From the sequence record OZ035821.1: DNA of 40,079 nt; one strand, written 5' to 3'. The translations under genes were made by a program, and so were the position numbers. The notes below the pieces were generated by a model. That model was given only the letters and a program-made list of their open reading frames with translations. It ran no database searches and was not told the DNA's origin. Of the stretch, positions 833-9,899 are shown piece after piece. Source of the stretch: Kayfunavirus PDP21P1. The stretch's first letter is position 1. Each line of letters starts with the position of its first letter.

Positions 833-1259
833 TTACTACAAAGTGGACCCGGCTAGTCCATCCGGTCTGGTCTCCGTTAGGACTGGAAAGCCTGTGGGGA
901 CATTAAGTCGGATGGGATATTGGATAGTACAGACACGAAGTCTAGGCAGTAAGCGGGCCCATCGTGTGATATGGGAACTAACCAATGGTCCTATACCGCA
1001 TGGTATGCAAATAGACCACATCGACAGGAACCCTAGCAATAATACCTTAAGTAACTTACGGCTCGTTACTGCCGCTGAAAACACTTGGAATACTGGTAGC
1101 CATTATGACTCTAAGACAGGAGTGAAGTGCGTTACCCGTCACCAGAATGGTTATAGGATTCAGGTTAAACGCGGGAATGCCTATATGCGAACAACACGTC
1201 CCACTTTAGAGGAGGCTATCGCTGTCCGGGACCTAATGCTGGAGGGACTATATGTCTAA
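822..1259 (+). CDS. HNH homing endonuclease with AP2-like DNA-binding domain
   Basis: Motifs YYKVDPxSPSGLV, [35 protein letters not shown], and a C-terminal GYRIQV...[15 protein letters not shown]2-like segment. GTG start with GGAGG upstream. Absent from the T7 backbone at this position; AT-rich relative to flanks. Confidence 0.75.
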
Positions 1260-3018
1260 GAAAACACCCGCTGAAAGACAGGCAGAAATGGTCCAAAGGA
1301 TGAGGGACGACTTCGTGTTCTTCATCTTCGTTCTCTGGAAAGCACTAAGTCTTCCGGTTCCAACCCGCTGCCAGATAGATATGTGTAAGAAGCTGGCTGC
1401 TGGGGATAATCGCCGCTTCATCCTTCAGGCGTTCCGTGGTATTGGCAAGTCGTTTTTGACCTGTGGCTTTGTGGTCTGGAAGCTATGGAATAACCCAGAC
1501 TTGAAGTTCATGATTGTGTCGGCCTCAAAGGAACGAGCCGATGCGAACTCCATCTTCATCAAGCGAATCATCGACCTCATGCCTCAGCTTCAGGAACTCA
1601 AACCTAAACAGGGGCAGCGAGATGCGGTTATCAGCTTCGACGTGGGACCTGCCAAGCCAGACCACTCACCTTCGGTTAAGTCCGTTGGTATCACTGGTCA
1701 GTTGACTGGTAGTCGTGCTGACATCCTGATTGCCGATGACGTGGAGGTTCCGAACAACTCAGCGACTCAGGCTGCACGAGACCGTCTATCAGAGCTTGTG
1801 AAAGAGTTCGACGCTATCCTGAAGCCGGGAGGTACGATCATCTATCTGGGTACTCCTCAGAACGAGATGACCCTGTACCGTGAGCTGGAAGGTCGTGGGT
1901 ACACCACTACTATCTGGCCCGCTCGTTATCCACGCGACAGGAAGGACTGGCAGTCTTACGGCGACCGTCTGGCTCCTATGCTTCAGGCAGAGCTGGAAGA
2001 GGACCCTGAGTCCTTCTACTGGCGTCCGACTGATGAAGTACGCTTCGATGATACGGACCTGAAGGAACGTGAGCTGTCCTACGGTAAAGCTGGCTTCGCT
2101 CTACAGTTCATGCTTAACCCGAACCTGAGTGATGCCGAGAAGTACCCTCTGAAGCTCCGTGACCTTATCGTAGCCGACTTGGACCCAGCGTCTAGCCCAA
2201 TGGTATACCAATGGCTTCCTAACCCTCAGAACAAGCGTGAGGACGTTCCTAACGTTGGACTCATGGGTGACTCATACCACACGTATCAGACTGTAGGTTC
2301 TGCCTTCAGTTCGTACACCCAGAAGATTCTAGTCATTGACCCTAGTGGTCGTGGTAAGGATGAAACTGGTTATGCGGTACTGTACCAGCTAAACGGCTAC
2401 ATCTTCGCTATGGAAGTTGGCGGTATGCGAGGTGGCTATGAAGACTCTACGCTGGAAGCCTTGGCTAAGATTGGTCGTAAGTGGAAGGTCCACGAATACG
2501 TCATTGAGGGTAACTTCGGTGATGGTATGTACCTTGAGCTATTCAAGCCTGTAGCTTCCCGTATCCATCCTGCGGCTGTAACTGAAGTGAAGAGTAAGGG
2601 TCAGAAAGAACTCCGCATCTGTGACGTTCTGGAGCCTATCATGGGGTCTCACCGACTTATCGTCAACGCTTCTGCTATCGTCCAAGACTACCAGACAGCC
2701 TCTGACAAGGATGGCGTTCGTAACCCTATCTACTCTCTCTTCTACCAGATGACACGTATCTCTCGTGAACGTGGGGCCTTGGCACACGATGACCGACTTG
2801 ATGCGCTGGCTATCGGTGTACAGTTCTTCGTTGAGTCGATGGCTAAGGATGCCAACAAAGGCGAACGTGAAGTCACTGAGGAGTGGCTGGAGGAACAGAT
2901 GGAGAACCCACGTAAAGGCTTCGAGTCCATCCACACTGAGTTCTGGGACAATGGGGTCCGGGTAACTCACGATACGGACGACGAGCTTGGACTAGGGTCC
3001 TACGTTACGTTCCACTAG
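1252..3018 (+). CDS. 19: Terminase large subunit (DNA maturation protein B), T7 gp19 homolog
   Basis: 588 aa. N-terminus [24 protein letters not shown]...[12 protein letters not shown]...[20 protein letters not shown] matches T7 gp19 almost residue for residue; length close to T7 (586 aa). Confidence 0.93.
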
Positions 3019-3112
3019 CTGAATGAATAACTATAGGCGAAAACTGAATTAATAAGCAGTTAGTAACCTATAGTTACTACCAGTCTAACCTACTGTTTTA
3101 TAAGGAGTTTGG

Positions 3113-3135
3113 ACTTAACTATCACTATAGGGAAG
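3113..3135 (+). promoter_or_regulatory. Phage RNA polymerase promoter (phiOR-like, downstream of gene 19)
   Basis: ACTTAACTATCACTATA^GGGAAG; matches the 11-member promoter family in this window. Same relative position as T7 phiOR. Confidence 0.7.
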
Positions 3136-3315
3136 ACCCCCGGTTACTTATAGTATTACTGTAGTGAATATACATATGCAGACTTTATGCAAGACCTTAG
3201 GAGGCAGACTCCGAGTTCTTACCTAAGGCTTGCACCGATGGAAGGAGGGTGATATTAATCATAATCCCTCCAATACAGATAGTCACCGACCATAGATACA
3301 GGAGGTATGTAGCAT

Positions 3316-3474
3316 ATGGCAAAGACCAAAGCTGTACTTAAAGCTCTGGCGACCAATCGAGCTACATACAGGTTTCTTGCTGCTGTTCTACTTGCTGCTG
3401 GCGTTACTGCTGGAAGTAAGTGGGTCGGGTGGGTCGAGACTCTCGTATGTTCTCTGGTGTCTCAGTGTAATTAA
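3316..3474 (+). CDS. Small hydrophobic protein (gp19.5-position ORF)
   Basis: 52-aa ORF found by hand (below the track threshold). AGGAGG RBS 11 nt upstream; predicted transmembrane segment (FLAAVLLAAGVTAG). Positioned after phiOR as T7 gene 19.5 is. Confidence 0.3.
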   Translation: MAKTKAVLKALATNRATYRFLAAVLLAAGVTAGSKWVGWVETLVCSLVSQCN

Positions 3475-3799
3475 CGCAATCATGGTAACGATTCATGAGC
3501 GGAAGACCTAAGGTCAGTACGTGGATAAAGACTCACTCTACTGACCTTAGCTACTGTAGTCAAGGACTTTAGGTAACACCTTAATAGAAGCTCACCTAGG
3601 GTCATCCTACTTATTGGTCTATCCTAGTGTCGCCTGACCTACGGTCACTCGATGAGTTTGGACCAAAAGTTTGAGACCACATCTCACAGTTCAAGAACCT
3701 CAAGTCTCCCCATAGGCCCTCTTTAAGTCCAGACCAAAGGCCCTACCCGTTACTGCTCCTTGCAGTCACAGACAGTCTATCATAAGGTTGGACTGATGG

Positions 3800-4020
3800 T
3801 CAAGACGTTAGGTCGACGATAGGTCTAGGCTATGGCTTAGGGTAGGACGATAGGTAGGGACTATGGGTCTTCTTTGAGTCTCTATCTGTATAGTGTTATA
3901 GTATAACATTACGTCCTACACCATAAGTCTCACCAACCTACAGTCCTACAACCTACAGTCCTACAACCTACAGTCACAACCATAAGACACCAACACCTAC
4001 AGTCATAGACCTACAGTTAC
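3800..4020 (+). repeat. Short direct-repeat arrays in the terminal-repeat / concatemer-junction region
   Basis: Tandem CTACAACCTACAGTC and CCTACAGT units (about 3937-4016) and GATAGGT/TAGGGTAGG units (about 3806-3866), within a roughly 1-kb non-coding stretch between gene 19.5 and the first early gene. Analogous to the CCTAAAG-type repeats flanking the T7 terminal repeat. Confidence 0.45.
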
Positions 4021-4130
4021 TAGACACAGAGCTATAGACTTAAGGTCTAAGACATGTTAGTCAAAGACTATATCCTCTTAGTCACCATGAGGCCGACGAT
4101 AGCTTAATCAATATTATTTCAAATTACCTA

Positions 4131-4160
4131 TTGACTATAGGTCAAGGATATGGCCTAATA
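4131..4160 (+). promoter_or_regulatory. Candidate host sigma70 early promoter (A1-like)
   Basis: TTGACT (4131-4136), then 17-18 bp, then a weak -10 (CCTAAT/CTAATA); upstream of the first early gene. Overlaps an AGGTCA-N6-TGGCCT hairpin. Confidence 0.25.
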
Positions 4161-4270
4161 GCTTCCGTCAACACGACACGGCAACAACCGGATAGTGAAG
4201 ACGCCGGTCCGGTCCGGTTAAGTAGTCAGCCTGTAAGACATACGAACAACAGGCAACCGACAGAAAGTAG

Positions 4271-4300
4271 TTGACAAGATGTAACGATAAGATGTAAGAT
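4271..4300 (+). promoter_or_regulatory. Candidate host sigma70 early promoter (A2-like)
   Basis: TTGACA (4271-4276), 18-bp spacer, TAAGAT (4295-4300). Resembles the T7 A2 promoter (TTGACA ... GTAAGATAC) as recalled. Confidence 0.4.
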
Positions 4301-4486
4301 GTACCACATCGAAACAACGGTGATGACCAACACTGAAATGGTCTACCTGAAGTCCTCTGACTGAAGGGAATGTTCTTTAACAATCTGGATAAACTCTTAA
4401 TGTGCGCCGACAGTGATTAGCTACAGGGTCTTTGAGTCTACATCTGAAGGCCCTGACTGATAGTCACTAACTAAAGGATAAACAAG

Positions 4487-5011
4487 ATGAAACTGATAGG
4501 CAAGGGCGCGTTCACTAAGTGCTACCTGAAGGACTGCGGGAAGCGTGTAATTCTGGTATCTTCAGACCCAATCAAGGAGTGTATGGCGTGGGGATGGTTC
4601 CCTGAGTCTCCACTGTTCCCTGAAGTCAAAATGATTGAGGTAGGCACGTATGAGATGGAATACATGCCACCAACACGAGGTCTCAAGGCGCATTTAGACG
4701 ATGACCAATGGCAACTCTATCAGGTGTTGCGAGACTGCTTCTCACGGTCTCCGGTAGTCTCTCGACCTGCCGAACTGTATCACAAGTGGTACGAGTTATT
4801 CCAAGATGCACACGACAGGTCTGAGTCTGAGACTGTGCGGGAGGGCCTGATGGATGTTCTGATGGCGCTGGACGCTTGCGCTAACTTCGGGTCAGACATT
4901 CAGTTTGAGATAAGCCCACGTAATGTACGGGCTGTGGATGGCAAGTTGATACTGGTTGATTGTTTCTTCCTTGTGTCCAAGCTGCCAAAGATGAGGTCGT
5001 CAAAATGGTAA
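4487..5011 (+). CDS. Early protein, possible gp0.7-family protein-kinase-like domain
   Basis: 174 aa, first ORF after the early promoters, AAAGGA RBS. Glycine-rich loop IGKGAFTKCY followed by RVILV resembles the T7 gp0.7 kinase N-terminus (LGNGHFSAAY ... RVIKV) only loosely. Not acidic, so not Ocr-like. Confidence 0.45.
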   Translation: MKLIGKGAFTKCYLKDCGKRVILVSSDPIKECMAWGWFPESPLFPEVKMIEVGTYEMEYMPPTRGLKAHLDDDQWQLYQVLRDCFSRSPVVSRPAELYHKWYELFQDAHDRSESETVREGLMDVLMALDACANFGSDIQFEISPRNVRAVDGKLILVDCFFLVSKLPKMRSSKW

Positions 5012-5154
5012 CTTATGGTCTCTGCCAGCACCACGTCACCAACGCCCGGATTATGGTCAAGACCGGGCAGTTAGACCACGATTGGGCTATGCGTCTCTTG
5101 AAAGTGGTCTACAGGAGACGCAAGCGTATACACGACAGCTTGCACGCTAAGTGA
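5005..5154 (+). CDS. Hypothetical early protein (basic C-terminus)
   Basis: In-frame ATG at 5005 overlaps the upstream stop (ATGGTAA) and has a GAGG RBS. 49 aa, ending in an Arg/Lys-rich tail (VVYRRRKRIHDSLHAK). Confidence 0.3.
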   Translation: MVTYGLCQHHVTNARIMVKTGQLDHDWAMRLLKVVYRRRKRIHDSLHAK

Positions 5155-5220
5155 TAAACGAGAGGTCATCGAATGATAGGTGGCCTCAAAGATTATCACT
5201 TACATTGATAGGGGTTAACT

Positions 5221-5388
5221 ATGAAATTTACAATCATCGCACTTTACATAACCATTATTCTATCTTGGCTTACTGCGGTGCTCACTGATGGTAACGCATT
5301 ACGACTGGGCTGGCTGGCAGTGGACATTATATTCTCTCCGGTAGGTGTCGTGCGCGGTATCTTGATGTGGATTGGACTGGCGGGATAA
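5221..5388 (+). CDS. Hypothetical small membrane protein
   Basis: 55-aa hand-found ORF with two predicted hydrophobic helices (IIALYITIILSWLTAVL; GVVRGILMWIGLAG). Weak RBS. Confidence 0.3.
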   Translation: MKFTIIALYITIILSWLTAVLTDGNALRLGWLAVDIIFSPVGVVRGILMWIGLAG

Positions 5389-5391
5389 ACT

Positions 5392-5589
5392 ATGAGTCTT
5401 GCACTATTGATAGCCATAGGCTATGGACTTATCGCCTACATGCTGATGAGAGACATCAACAAGGCGCGTAAAGTCTACAAATTCAACTATGTACGTCTGG
5501 GCCGCTGGACTGTACGTCAACCTAACGGGCGCTTCGCGCGTAACTTAGCGAACGTCTGGGATATAGCAACTCTTGGGAGCAAACTGTAA
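5392..5589 (+). CDS. Hypothetical early protein with N-terminal transmembrane helix
   Basis: 65-aa ORF; N-terminal hydrophobic segment LALLIAIGYGLIAYML. Tightly packed with neighbouring ORFs. Confidence 0.4.
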   Translation: MSLALLIAIGYGLIAYMLMRDINKARKVYKFNYVRLGRWTVRQPNGRFARNLANVWDIATLGSKL

Positions 5590-5915
5590 TGAACAAGTCA
5601 TACGGGATTAATTTGGTACACTCTATGGACGCAGAAATGAACACGTTAAGCCTACTGGCTACCGGGTATCGTCACGGAACGTCAAGTCACTCCGCACGTC
5701 AACAGCAGGAGCGGGACCGTGTACTACAGGCACGACTCCGGGCAGAGGGCCATAAGTACGAACTGATGTGTCTGGCGTATGGTGGACGACCGATCACTGA
5801 CGATGGTAAACTTCTGGTCTCAGGCTGGAAGGCGATAGACCAACGGTCAACCATCAAGCACACGACTCACGGTGACTTCAGTCATCTTCACGCTAACCCT
5901 CTGATATGTAAGTAA
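5589..5915 (+). CDS. Hypothetical early protein
   Basis: 108-aa ORF; start overlaps the upstream stop (TAATG); GGGAG RBS. No recognisable motif. Confidence 0.5.
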   Translation: MNKSYGINLVHSMDAEMNTLSLLATGYRHGTSSHSARQQQERDRVLQARLRAEGHKYELMCLAYGGRPITDDGKLLVSGWKAIDQRSTIKHTTHGDFSHLHANPLICK

Positions 5916-5920
5916 TTATG

Positions 5921-5943
5921 ACTTAACTATCACTATAGGACTC
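5921..5943 (+). promoter_or_regulatory. Phage RNA polymerase promoter immediately upstream of gene 1
   Basis: ACTTAACTATCACTATA^GGACTC, identical at -17..-1 to the promoter at 3113. Lies 70 nt upstream of the RNA polymerase start codon. Confidence 0.65.
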
Positions 5944-6012
5944 AAGGTCTAAGACTCCAAGTGAAAGACCAAAGAGACTCTAAGTGAAAGACTAATAACA
6001 AGGACTTTAAGT

Positions 6013-8694
6013 ATGAGCGTCATCTCTATTGACAGACACGACTTCTCTGATGTGTCGAACGCCATTGAGCCGTTTAACCTGCTGGCAGACCACTACGGGC
6101 AAGACCTTGCAGTAAAACAGCTTCAGCTTGAGCATGAGGCATACACTGAAGGCGAGCGACGTTTCATCAAAAACCTTGAGCGACAGACTGAGCGCGGGGA
6201 ACTGGCAGACAATCAGGTCGCCAAGCCTTTGATGCAGACTCTGGTTCCTAAGATTGCGCAAGCCGTCAGGGAGTGGCATGAAGGCCCAGACGGGAAGCTG
6301 TCAACCTCTCGTCCTAGCGTAGCGTTCACCATGTTGAGCACTGAAGAGAGGGCCGTTAAAGACCGTTCTCTACGCATCTCCTGCGAGTCTGCTGCTGTCA
6401 TCATACTGAAGGTCATCCTCTCCAAGCTGGTCAAGCCTGAAGGGATACCGATTACACCGATGGCCTCCGCGTTAGGTCGCACACTTGAGGACGAAATCCG
6501 CTTCGGTCGCATCCGTGACAAGGAGAAAGAGCACTTCAAGAAGGCGATAGCTGATAACCTGAATAAGCGGGCCGGGGCGTCCTACAAGAAAGCCTACATG
6601 CAAGCGGTCGAGGCATCCATGCTGGAGAAAGGCCAACTGGAAGATGCGTGGGGGACTTGGAGTCCTACAGAGGCTGTCCACGTTGGCATCAAGATGCTCG
6701 AGATTGTCATCCAGTCAACACAACTGGTCGAGCTTAAGCGGTACGGCGCTGGCAATGCAGCGGCTGACGTAGAGATGGTCCACCTGTCAGACTTCTGGGT
6801 CAAGAAGATGGCACAACGAGGATTCAGCCTTGCGGGTATCGCTCCAGTCTACCAGCCTTGCGTCGTTCCACCTAAGCCGTGGACTGGTGTCGTAGGTGGT
6901 GGGTACTGGGCCAAAGGTCGCAGACCACTACCACTGATTCGCTTAGGGTCTAAGTCTGCGGTAGCACGTTACGAAGACGTGTACATGCCTGAAGTATATG
7001 ACGCTGTTAACATTATCCAGAATACACCTTGGAAAGTGAACAAGAAGGTTCTGGACGTGGTGAACATGGTCGAGAAGTTGCACAACACGCCTATTGATGA
7101 CATCCCTCAGATGGAGCCACTGAAGCCTGAGGACTATGTGGGTGAGACTGAAGAAGAACTCAAAGCATGGAAGAAAGCTGCTGCTGGTATCTACCGCCGC
7201 GAGAAGGCCCGACAGTCACGCAGATTGTCGCTGAGTTTTATCGTCAGCCAGGCGAACAAGTTCTCGCAGTTTAAGGCTATCTGGTTCCCATACAACATGG
7301 ACTGGCGCGGTCGCGTCTACGCTGTACCGATGTTCAACCCTCAGGGTAACGACATGCAGAAAGGTCTCCTGACTTTGGCAGTCGGTAAGCCTATTGGCGC
7401 TGATGGTTTCAAATGGCTGAAGGTCCACGGTGCAAACTGTGCGGGTGTTGATAAAGTCACCTTCGAGGAGCGCATCAAGTGGGTGGAAGATAACCACGAC
7501 AACATCATGGCTGCTGCTAAAGCGCCGATGGATAGTATTGAGTGGTGGGGAAAGTTAGACTCTCCGTTCTGTTTCCTCGCGTTCTGCTTCGAGTATGCTG
7601 GCGTAATGCACCACGGCCTTTCTTACTCCTGCTCGCTACCGATAGCGTTCGATGGGTCCTGCTCTGGGATTCAGCACTTCAGCGCGATGCTTCGTGATCA
7701 CATCGGTGGACACGCAGTAAACCTGACGCCATCCGGTAAGGTACAAGACATCTACCGCATCGTGTCCGACCGCATTGAGGAGGAGCTTAAAGTCCTGCTG
7801 GTTAACGGCACGGACAATGAGATGGTAACTCACGAGGACAAGAAAACTGGTGAGATTACCGAACGTCTCAAGCTGGGGACACGAGAGCTGGCCCGGCAGT
7901 GGCTTACTTACGGTATGTCACGTAAGGTCACTAAGCGTTCAGTCATGACTCTGGCCTACGGGTCGAAGGAGTACGGATTCGCAGACCAAGTTTACGAGGA
8001 CATCGTGATGCCAGCGATTGACTCAGGGTCTGGCGCTATGTTCACCGAGCCAAGCCAAGCGTCTCGCTTCATGGCTAAGATGATTTGGGAAGCTGTGAGT
8101 GTGACCGTAGTTGCTGCTGTTGACGCGATGAAGTGGCTTCAGGGTGCTGCCAAGCTGCTGGCTGCTGAAGTGAAGGACAAGAAGACTGGAGAAATCCTGA
8201 AGCCTTGCCTTCCAGTACACTGGGTAACACCTGATGGTTTCCCTGTCTGGCAGGAATACCGCAAGAAGGATACCACGCGTCTGAACCTGATGTTCTTAGG
8301 GTCATTCAACCTTCAGCCTACCGTCAACAAAGGCACGAAGAAGGAGCTGGATAAGCACAAGCAGGAGTCAGGAATTAGCCCGAACTTCGTCCACTCACAA
8401 GATGGTAGCCACCTACGCAAGACTGTAGTCCACACTCACCGCAAGTATGGCGTGATGTCATTCGCAGTGATTCACGATAGCTTCGGGACAATCCCGGCTG
8501 ACGCTGAGTATCTGTTCCGTGGTGTCCGTGAGACTATGGTCGAGACCTACCGCGACAACGATGTGCTGCTTGACTTCTACGAGCAGTTCGAATACCAGCT
8601 TCACGAGAGTCAGCGCGACAAGTTGCCTGAGCTTCCGAAGAAAGGTAAACTGAATATCGAAGACATCTTGTCTTCAGACTTTGCATTCGCTTAA
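6013..8694 (+). CDS. 1: DNA-directed RNA polymerase (single-subunit), T7 gp1 homolog
   Basis: 893 aa. Near-collinear with T7 RNAP as recalled (PWTGxxGGGYWAxGRRPL, FPYNMDWRGRVYA, FCFLAFCFEYAG, HDSFGTIPADA, C-terminal FAFA). Confidence 0.97.
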   Translation: MSVISIDRHDFSDVSNAIEPFNLLADHYGQDLAVKQLQLEHEAYTEGERRFIKNLERQTERGELADNQVAKPLMQTLVPKIAQAVREWHEGPDGKLSTSRPSVAFTMLSTEERAVKDRSLRISCESAAVIILKVILSKLVKPEGIPITPMASALGRTLEDEIRFGRIRDKEKEHFKKAIADNLNKRAGASYKKAYMQAVEASMLEKGQLEDAWGTWSPTEAVHVGIKMLEIVIQSTQLVELKRYGAGNAAADVEMVHLSDFWVKKMAQRGFSLAGIAPVYQPCVVPPKPWTGVVGGGYWAKGRRPLPLIRLGSKSAVARYEDVYMPEVYDAVNIIQNTPWKVNKKVLDVVNMVEKLHNTPIDDIPQMEPLKPEDYVGETEEELKAWKKAAAGIYRREKARQSRRLSLSFIVSQANKFSQFKAIWFPYNMDWRGRVYAVPMFNPQGNDMQKGLLTLAVGKPIGADGFKWLKVHGANCAGVDKVTFEERIKWVEDNHDNIMAAAKAPMDSIEWWGKLDSPFCFLAFCFEYAGVMHHGLSYSCSLPIAFDGSCSGIQHFSAMLRDHIGGHAVNLTPSGKVQDIYRIVSDRIEEELKVLLVNGTDNEMVTHEDKKTGEITERLKLGTRELARQWLTYGMSRKVTKRSVMTLAYGSKEYGFADQVYEDIVMPAIDSGSGAMFTEPSQASRFMAKMIWEAVSVTVVAAVDAMKWLQGAAKLLAAEVKDKKTGEILKPCLPVHWVTPDGFPVWQEYRKKDTTRLNLMFLGSFNLQPTVNKGTKKELDKHKQESGISPNFVHSQDGSHLRKTVVHTHRKYGVMSFAVIHDSFGTIPADAEYLFRGVRETMVETYRDNDVLLDFYEQFEYQLHESQRDKLPELPKKGKLNIEDILSSDFAFA

Positions 8695-9635: not shown

Positions 9636-9899
9636 ATGGGCCGACTTTATAGTGGCAATCTCAACGCTTTCAGAGCAGCGTGTAACAGGCTCTATCAGTT
9701 AGACTTCGCTGTCATATCTCAGGAGTTTCAAGACTGTACGTCACACCAAGAGTGCATGAAACTCAGGGTGGATGACCGAGCTGGTAACATCTTCGCGCTT
9801 GTGACCTTCTCACGCTACGATGAAGACGTGCTGTATAACACCGCAACCGACTACCTCAACGGTCTCGCTGACCAACTCGACACATGGAGCAAAGCATAA
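9636..9899 (+). CDS. 1.2: Inhibitor of host dGTPase, T7 gp1.2 homolog
   Basis: 87 aa. MGRLYSGNLxAFxAAxNxLxQLDxAVI ... YDEDVLxN matches T7 gp1.2 as recalled. Confidence 0.8.
   Translation: MGRLYSGNLNAFRAACNRLYQLDFAVISQEFQDCTSHQECMKLRVDDRAGNIFALVTFSRYDEDVLYNTATDYLNGLADQLDTWSKA

Follow-up and report, generated by a model that had tools for sequence, protein, structure and literature searches.

What takes the place of Ocr at the head of the early region in a T7-type phage in which no Ocr gene is recognisable? The question is raised by Kayfunavirus PDP21P1 (sequence record OZ035821.1), from which a stretch of 40,079 nucleotides, here called the window, was analysed. The genome it contains is complete and circularly permuted, and the phage is K1F-like, T7-type and a member of the genus Kayfunavirus. 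At positions 4487-5915 it carries five small open reading frames (ORFs), all on the plus strand, which encode proteins of 174, 49, 55, 65 and 108 amino acids (aa). An original prediction, made from the DNA letters and their translations, had described these as five unplaced proteins and had put them forward as the best candidates in the window for uncharacterised anti-defence activities. Our analysis suggests that the first of them has a minimal kinase-like fold. The explanation that we favour, and hold to be on balance probable, is that the region is a class-I early operon whose swappable slot 0.3 holds an active, host-directed mini-kinase and is followed by a gp0.4-type peptide.

A predicted minimal kinase-like fold in the 174-aa protein

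The 174-aa gene (4487..5011, plus strand) is a member of PHROG 11084 and occupies the Ocr slot. An AlphaFold2 model of its product, built from a 65-sequence alignment, gave a predicted local distance difference test score (pLDDT) of 95.2 and a predicted template modelling score (pTM) of 0.90. The model has a bilobal kinase-like fold with an N-lobe, a helical bundle, a catalytic loop and a DFG-like aspartate. Its structural neighbours in the PDB, as found with Foldseek at probabilities up to 0.99, are almost all kinases (APH(2''), Rio2, Snf1, CDK2), and its neighbours in BFVD are family members, other uncharacterised phage proteins and viral kinases. The protein is therefore described here as a minimal protein-kinase-like fold that is confidently modelled. 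The original prediction had noted a loose kinase-like glycine loop, and the hint has become stronger, as a full fold is modelled and the catalytic-loop and DFG-like motifs are conserved.

Three motifs are apparent in the alignment of the family, namely a glycine loop IGKGAFT, FEISPRN and L-x-D-C-F-F, and their conservation was measured across 260 diverse PHROG 11084 members with identities down to ~30%. In the glycine loop (residues 4-10) G7 is found in 258/260 members, G5 in 246/260 and F9 in 253/260. The catalytic loop, E141-I-S-P-R-N146, has the spacing and the proline of DLKPEN; its asparagine is invariant, and E141 stands at the position of the catalytic aspartate in 260/260 members. D158 of the L-x-D-C-F-F motif (259/260) lies 12 residues past N146, at the position of the metal-binding aspartate of DFG. 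The beta3 strand reads RVILVS, with L23 where the T7 gp0.7 kinase (T7K) has its invariant K93, and the canonical beta3 lysine (VAIK) is absent. A different lysine, K30, is present in 257/260 members at the start of a helix, 7 residues past the canonical position.

The strict conservation of the predicted nucleotide- and metal-binding residues favours catalysis or, at a minimum, nucleotide binding. A different reading is that the protein is a catalytically dead pseudokinase that acts by binding, either as a nucleotide sponge or by engaging a host protein as its stoichiometric inhibitor or decoy, just as Ocr works by binding and not by catalysis. This reading stays alive because the beta3 lysine is missing (L23 in place of the residue equivalent to T7K K93) and the catalytic aspartate is changed to glutamate, and it is also consistent with a protein that kinase hidden Markov models (HMMs) do not recognise and with a slot shared with the pure binder Ocr. 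Pseudokinases usually lose the residues that bind ATP-Mg, whereas here the expected ones (G7, N146 and D158), together with K30 and E141, stand as invariant positions across the 260 sequences, a pattern with which a nucleotide sponge would still be compatible. We regard a pseudokinase as unlikely.

The chain ends 16 residues past D158, with neither an activation segment nor a substrate-binding C-lobe after the DFG-like aspartate. This feature would also suit a small-molecule kinase of the APH/choline-kinase type, the target of which could be a metabolite, an antibiotic-like toxin or an immune signalling nucleotide. The best Foldseek matches in the PDB are aminoglycoside 2''-phosphotransferases and a corramycin phosphotransferase, and ethanolamine and choline kinases are among the BFVD matches. 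The genomic evidence that bears on this alternative is given below; taken together, we consider it quite improbable.

Relationship to the T7 gp0.7 kinase

Alignment of the 174-aa family with T7 gp0.7-type kinases using hhalign gave E 4.3e-5 and Prob 69% over 151 columns, with a T7K profile of 10 sequences only, and alignment of the family with the single T7 sequence gave E 0.0046. The glycine loop, FEISPRN/FDxHxGN and LLDCFF/ITDPVSF were all in register in the family alignment. Direct BLASTP of the 174-aa protein against T7 gp0.7 returned noise only. PF27024 was not matched at E <= 1 by the protein or its 65 relatives, and none of the 65 family members matched the kinase families PHROG 2828, 15752 and 18305. 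These data are suggestive of a distant and minimal relative of the T7K kinase domain that lies outside the T7K family proper, since the family HMMs do not recognise it and the DPV motif, N-terminal extension and shut-off domain described for T7K (PMC13645617) are missing. Longer members of PHROG 11084 contain no recognisable domain fusions.

The slot shared with Ocr

All five ORFs appear to be real genes and not chance ORFs, because each matches a PHROG family labelled 'unknown function' (E 1e-24 to 1e-92) and each gives a ratio of non-synonymous to synonymous substitution (dN/dS) within 0.11-0.48 in pairwise comparison with Kayfunavirus homologues, consistent with purifying selection. Each is preceded by a Shine-Dalgarno-like sequence, and stop/start overlaps couple translation in two pairs. 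The coordinates and sizes originally assigned to them are exact. Kayfunaviruses of Salmonella, Citrobacter (SH4/SH5) and E. coli match the interval 4300-6000 at 91-94% identity.

The earlier statement that none of the five is acidic or Ocr-like is borne out. The isoelectric points (pI) of the 174-, 49-, 55-, 65- and 108-aa proteins are 5.95, 10.6, 8.3, 11.0 and 9.3, and none of the five matches the Ocr family PHROG 2568. Searches of the whole window with tblastn, using Ocr of T7, K1F and Vec13, the T3 S-adenosylmethionine (SAM) hydrolase and three T7-type kinases, found none of these genes (all E > 0.4). The three Ocr queries gave E > 0.8, and the best match of the SAM hydrolase (T3 gp0.3; E 0.84) falls outside the early region, in line with the original prediction. 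As a positive control, gp1.2 was found by the same search at 9636-9890 with E 3e-29. Sequence searches of Pfam, NCBIfam and the PDB gave nothing meaningful for the five ORFs or for the 65 relatives of the 174-aa protein, and none of the five matched a known anti-defence family. Profile and structure searches, which had been proposed as a check, assigned no early ORF to a housekeeping family.

Comparison with the early regions of T7, T3, K1F, Vec13, SH4 and ST29 shows that the block is collinear with T7/T3 genes 0.3-0.4-0.5-0.6-0.7. K1F has Ocr (169 aa) followed by 49-, 55- and 65-aa proteins that are 80-92% identical to those of the window, and Vec13 has Ocr (110 aa), the same 49-55-65-aa core and in addition the 108-aa gene. 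In ST29 the first early gene encodes a 243-aa T7K-type kinase and the gp0.4-like 49-aa gene is absent. Of 16 Kayfunavirus early regions, 10 have Ocr and 5 have the 174-aa gene directly before the gp0.4-like gene, and the two never occur together, a count made on related genomes that does not represent independent events. The operon architecture is thus ordinary for the group, and the 174-aa protein, a variant phage early kinase, is its one interesting novelty.

PHROG 11084 extends well outside this genus. The family comprises 791 clusters at 50% identity and occurs in 83 phage records with hosts ranging from E. coli to Pseudomonas and Cellulophaga, nearly all labelled 'hypothetical'. Carriers include Kayfunaviruses, Klebsiella Molineuxvirinae, Dickeya Aarhusviruses and the siphovirus Seurat, as well as ~98 kb Pseudomonas myoviruses and phages of Cellulophaga, Aeromonas and Ralstonia. 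Some of the Dickeya Aarhusvirus records name the family member 'serine/threonine kinase'. A match to T7-type RNA polymerase lies downstream, on the same strand and within the flank, in 16/39 IMG/VR loci, which places the 174-aa family among the early genes of several Autographiviridae lineages. In the SH4 genome paper the 174-aa protein is listed without a function (PMC4925675). A literature search by motif, by PHROG number and by Kayfunavirus together with anti-defence found no publication on the family, and the 200 accessory genes that Silas et al. screened do not include it.

In four uncultivated viral contigs (9-141 kb) Ocr (PHROG 2568, E 1e-42) is encoded two genes upstream of a PHROG 11084 member on the same strand. 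At ~3720-5480 in these loci Ocr and the mini-kinase sit in a run of small unknown genes, with an intervening 116-aa gene seen in one locus. Such loci may represent an anti-defence cluster in a non-T7-like phage. The ZG49-like IMG/VR contig 2974604219 carries a partial tandem duplication (1828-2362) where the 174- and 49-aa genes meet, in which a 76-aa ORF, one part of it 49-aa-like, and a 53-aa piece of the kinase C-terminus precede an intact 49-aa gene.

The distribution data bear on a further alternative, namely that none of the five genes is anti-defence. They would then serve takeover or fitness in general, through division, the envelope or transcription, in a phage that is restriction-sensitive or uses another route such as site avoidance. 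The 49-aa protein is a homologue of gp0.4, a known FtsZ inhibitor (PMC9372555), known anti-defence families are unmatched, and the 49-55-65-aa core is kept in K1F and Vec13 whichever gene fills slot 0.3, which fits housekeeping takeover. Against this, the genes with which the 174-aa gene alternates in this slot (Ocr and the T7K type) both have a proven anti-defence function, and PHROG 11084 is linked to Ocr in unrelated contigs. We consider it possible, though doubtful, that the whole block is free of anti-defence functions. The anti-defence proposal has thus held in part. The 174-aa gene is a good candidate, given its Ocr/T7K slot and its Ocr neighbourhood; the 49-aa gene is better placed in host takeover, and for the 55-, 65- and 108-aa genes the argument is their early position.

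A proposed active mini-kinase and the points against it

Several observations weigh against an active counter-defence kinase. The 174-aa protein has no sequence-profile match to kinase families in Pfam (including PF27024), the PHROG kinase families, NCBIfam or the PDB, and the loss of the beta3 lysine and the change of the catalytic aspartate to glutamate are both typical of pseudokinases. An anti-defence role is suggested by position and neighbourhood; that Ocr and T7K alternate with the protein in one slot, and that it is linked to Ocr elsewhere, are guilt-by-position arguments that say nothing about the target, and the mutual exclusion with Ocr carries the dependence among genomes mentioned above. 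The Ser/Thr/Tyr content of the early proteins is 14.2% vs 15.7%, a marginal depletion that is not informative as a signature of a promiscuous kinase. Finally, a full T7-type kinase and a PHROG 11084 member are found in the same phage in three Dickeya Aarhusvirus loci, so that the two are not redundant or simply interchangeable. The substrate of the mini-kinase may therefore differ from that of the T7-type kinase, and this coexistence is also the genomic evidence in favour of a small-molecule kinase, as it suggests another substrate. In Dickeya phage Mysterion (locus 1057-2968) the mini-kinase belongs to the initial part of the early region, and gene 1 is immediately preceded by a 352-aa T7-type kinase.

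With these points in mind, the model that we favour, the early operon with an active mini-kinase, would work as follows. The region is the class-I (host-transcribed) early operon of a Kayfunavirus, collinear with T7/T3 0.3-0.7, in which slot 0.3 is hot-swappable and holds an Ocr DNA mimic or a T7-type kinase in siblings and the 174-aa protein, taken to be a stand-alone enzyme, here. This enzyme would bind ATP-Mg through the glycine loop, Lys30, Asn146 and Asp158, and transfer phosphate with Glu141 as the base. It would act on host proteins in the first minutes of infection, disarming or re-programming them, and would thus be a counter-defence or host-takeover kinase. The 49-aa gp0.4-type peptide would most likely bind FtsZ and block division, and the 55- and 65-aa products would insert in the inner membrane. 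The 108-aa basic protein takes the gp0.7 position.

The 49-aa protein and FtsZ

The second gene (5005..5154, plus strand) encodes a 49-aa basic protein, and its ATG overlaps the stop of the 174-aa gene. T7 gene 0.4 likewise starts at the gene 0.3 stop, and the same arrangement is found after Ocr in K1F and Vec13. BLASTP aligned the 49-aa protein with T7 gp0.4 at 37% identity over 41 aa. Their PHROG families, 5058 and 7202, match reciprocally (E 4.6e-4 and 9e-5), and hhalign of family against family gave Prob 93.8% and E 1.7e-7 over 41/49 residues, which cover a two-helix core. On this sequence evidence the 49-aa protein is a homologue of T7 gp0.4.

T7 gp0.4 is an FtsZ inhibitor (Kiro et al. 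2013, as cited in PMC9372555; PMC13423816). The 49-aa protein resembles it in length, in helical prediction and in operon position, and shares with it a YGL...MV+xG...AM..LK..Y..K motif and a leucine equivalent to T7 L35. In contrast to the acidic tail of T7 gp0.4 it is very basic (pI 10.6), and it has no conserved counterpart in register to T7 W28, an escape position. By analogy with T7 gp0.4, the 49-aa protein is likely to bind FtsZ and block division.

This has a consequence for K1F, which Dhanoa et al. found to mislocalise FtsZ; they stated that it 'lacks the 0.4 gene' and reported the inhibitor as unknown (PMC9372555). In the K1F genome (NC_007456) positions 1623-1772 encode a 49-aa 'hypothetical protein' that is a gp0.4 homologue, 80% identical to that of the window. 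As judged by this similarity, the ORF is likely to be the unnamed FtsZ inhibitor of K1F.

The 55-, 65- and 108-aa proteins

Two of the small ORFs had been predicted to encode transmembrane (TM) helices, and these are the 55- and 65-aa proteins, with 19-residue Kyte-Doolittle maxima of 2.27 and 2.07, consistent with two TM helices in the former and one N-terminal TM helix in the latter. The 55-aa hydrophobic protein (5221..5388, plus strand) occupies the T7 gp0.5 slot and matches PHROG 7319 at E 4e-24, with dN/dS 0.11. No relatives were found beyond Kayfunaviruses, and a similarity to T7 gp0.5 itself was sought and not found. In some siblings (ST29 and one IMG/VR contig) a gp0.5-like peptide replaces the 55-aa protein in its slot.

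The 65-aa protein (5392..5589, plus strand; PHROG 2385) has an N-terminal TM helix and a basic tail. BLASTP gave 41% identity and E 1e-10 with a 65-aa early protein of T3, and E 2e-11 with Dickeya phage JA10, the identities to T3 and JA10 being 41-44%. The 65-aa early protein of T3, phiYeO3-12 and JA10 ('0.6B' in the T3 RefSeq record) has in common with that of the window its length, the N-terminal TM helix and a TVRxxNGRF motif. Its immediate downstream neighbour is the gp0.7 kinase gene in T3 and JA10 and, in the window, the 108-aa gene that occupies that slot. An assignment to T7 gp0.6A, the MreB inhibitor, was rejected, as the similarity covers only 13-20 residues (E ~0.03). The annotation '0.6' given to the 65-aa protein in K1F is a positional label.

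The 108-aa basic protein (5589..5915, plus strand; PHROG 7066) has 143 homologues, all in ~40 kb contigs, and the best 120 of the 143 are at least 62% identical; it is restricted to Kayfunavirus. Its conserved core comprises residues 25-108 (84 residues). The AlphaFold2 model, with a pLDDT of 45, is unusable, and no similarity was found in Pfam, NCBIfam or the PDB or to T7K. The possibility that it is a detached gp0.7 shut-off domain was tried with hhalign against full-length T7K, including the shut-off domain, and was rejected on the negative result. At 5859-5912 (residues 91-108) the residues H91, H94, H99, H101 and C107 are conserved, a His/Cys pattern that may form a metal-binding site. 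K1F (NC_007456) has an unannotated 59-aa ORF at 2289-2468 that is 97% identical to part of the 108-aa family; this truncated copy sits in the 'empty' 358-bp gap before gene 1.

The description of the five proteins as unplaced therefore remains apt for the 55- and 108-aa proteins. It no longer applies to the 49-aa protein, a gp0.4 homologue, or to the 65-aa protein, which has relatives in T3 and JA10, and the block as a whole is collinear with T7/T3 0.3-0.7.

Transcription signals and RNA structure

A consensus scan placed the best sigma70-type promoter-like site, TTGACA-18-TAAGAT, at 4271..4300 on the plus strand (10/12 matches), and this is a candidate host promoter. The first ORF longer than 21 aa past this site is the 174-aa ORF, in agreement with its earlier designation as the first gene after the candidate host promoters. 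The phage RNA-polymerase promoter consensus TAACTATCACTATAGG has 10 matches in the window against 0.02 expected, none of them between 3132 and 5923 in the consensus scan; an exact match at 5924..5939 (plus strand) ends the host-transcribed block. The five genes are read as host-transcribed early genes because a sigma70-like site lies upstream of them and no phage promoter is found at 3132-5923. The downstream anchor of the block is gene 1 (6013..8694, plus strand), an 893-aa ORF for the T7-type single-subunit RNA polymerase that is 99% identical to K1F gene 1 across the first 300 residues. The match at 5924-5939 lies directly upstream of this gene and would permit its autogenous transcription, whereas in T7 no such promoter is annotated before gene 1.

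A stem-loop just 5' of the first early gene (4412..4468, plus strand) has a minimum free energy (MFE) fold with z -2.5. Its flanks, GTGATTA.CTACAGG...CCTGACTGATAGTCACTAAC, are conserved in the window, SH4, K1F and Vec13 whichever gene comes next. The variable slot 0.3 is bounded on its left by this stem-loop, which, by analogy with T7 R0.3, may be an RNase III-type processing site. At this boundary (window 4470-4495 vs SH4 915-1140) the window lacks SH4 gp1 (67 aa, PHROG 336), and the ribosome-binding site and ATG that open gp1 in SH4 open the 174-aa gene in the window, so that gp1 has apparently been lost by a precise ATG-to-ATG deletion.

A second RNA hairpin lies between the 49- and 55-aa genes (5150..5200, plus strand), with an MFE of -23.5 kcal/mol and z -5.2, and 0/200 shuffles were as stable. 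It is similar to the sites at which RNase III processes T7 early mRNA and, by this analogy, is a putative processing site. Rfam gave no match across 3000-6100, including this hairpin.

Other features of the left end

Upstream of the early region are the gene for the terminase large subunit (1252-3018), a gp19.5-like ORF (3316-3474) and then the non-coding left end. The latter contains short tandem repeats at 3913-4011, upstream of the early promoters, in which CAACCTACAGTCCTA is repeated 2.8 times within a looser 30-nt repeat. At 822-1259, directly upstream of the terminase gene and overlapping it, is a 145-aa ORF with an HNH-endonuclease-like motif; in JSS1 an HNH homing endonuclease is annotated at the equivalent place.

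Implications

If the favoured model is correct, the 174-aa family would be a much smaller and widespread relative of the anti-defence T7-type kinases, unrecognisable by sequence and with an atypical active site. As a candidate for a new counter-defence activity, a mini-kinase in the Ocr slot would be concrete and inexpensive to test, and it would illustrate how far the kinase core can shrink. A more far-reaching proposal, which we put forward tentatively and do not expect to hold in full, is that PHROG 11084 is a new class of phage counter-defence enzyme, the smallest known stand-alone enzyme of kinase fold, with a Glu-based catalytic centre and a relocated ATP-binding lysine, expressed ahead of other genes on the injected DNA and functionally interchangeable with Ocr. 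If true, podo-, sipho- and myoviruses of many hosts would have an enzyme with which to counter restriction/BREX-type or other defences in place of a DNA mimic. For K1F, a therapeutic-model phage, the 49-aa gp0.4 homologue is a specific FtsZ-inhibitor candidate. The variable first slot may also serve as a marker for predicting the restriction, BREX or PARIS sensitivity of Kayfunavirus therapy candidates.

Comparison with known systems

The closest known counterparts of the 174-aa protein are the T7 gp0.7 kinase (T7K; PHROG 2828, PF27024) and JSS1_004 of Kayfunavirus JSS1, which like it are encoded by host-transcribed early genes of Studiervirinae. Early kinases of the T7 type have been proven to act broadly against host defences (PMC13645617, PMC12345140). 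The T7K core resembles the 174-aa protein in having a glycine loop, an F-[DE]-x-x-x-x-N catalytic loop and an aspartate ~12-18 residues further on, and in ending soon after. The two differ in length (174 aa vs 243-369 aa for T7K-type kinases), in the ~65-aa N-terminal helical extension and the basic DNA-binding shut-off domain that are found only in T7K, and in the active site, where the 174-aa protein has glutamate for the catalytic aspartate, DCF for the T7K DPV and leucine for the invariant beta3 lysine.

The minimal effector kinases OspG (Shigella) and NleH1 (enteropathogenic E. coli) have no detectable sequence relationship to the 174-aa protein. Unlike it, OspG/NleH keep the canonical lysine and the catalytic aspartate, and they are type III secretion effectors that act in eukaryotic cells.

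In sequence, charge and fold the 174-aa protein is dissimilar to T7 Ocr (gp0.3) and the T3 SAM hydrolase, its pI of 5.95 contrasting with that of a highly acidic DNA mimic. What it shares with both is the slot itself, as the first early gene, with a conserved hairpin before it and a gp0.4-like gene after it.

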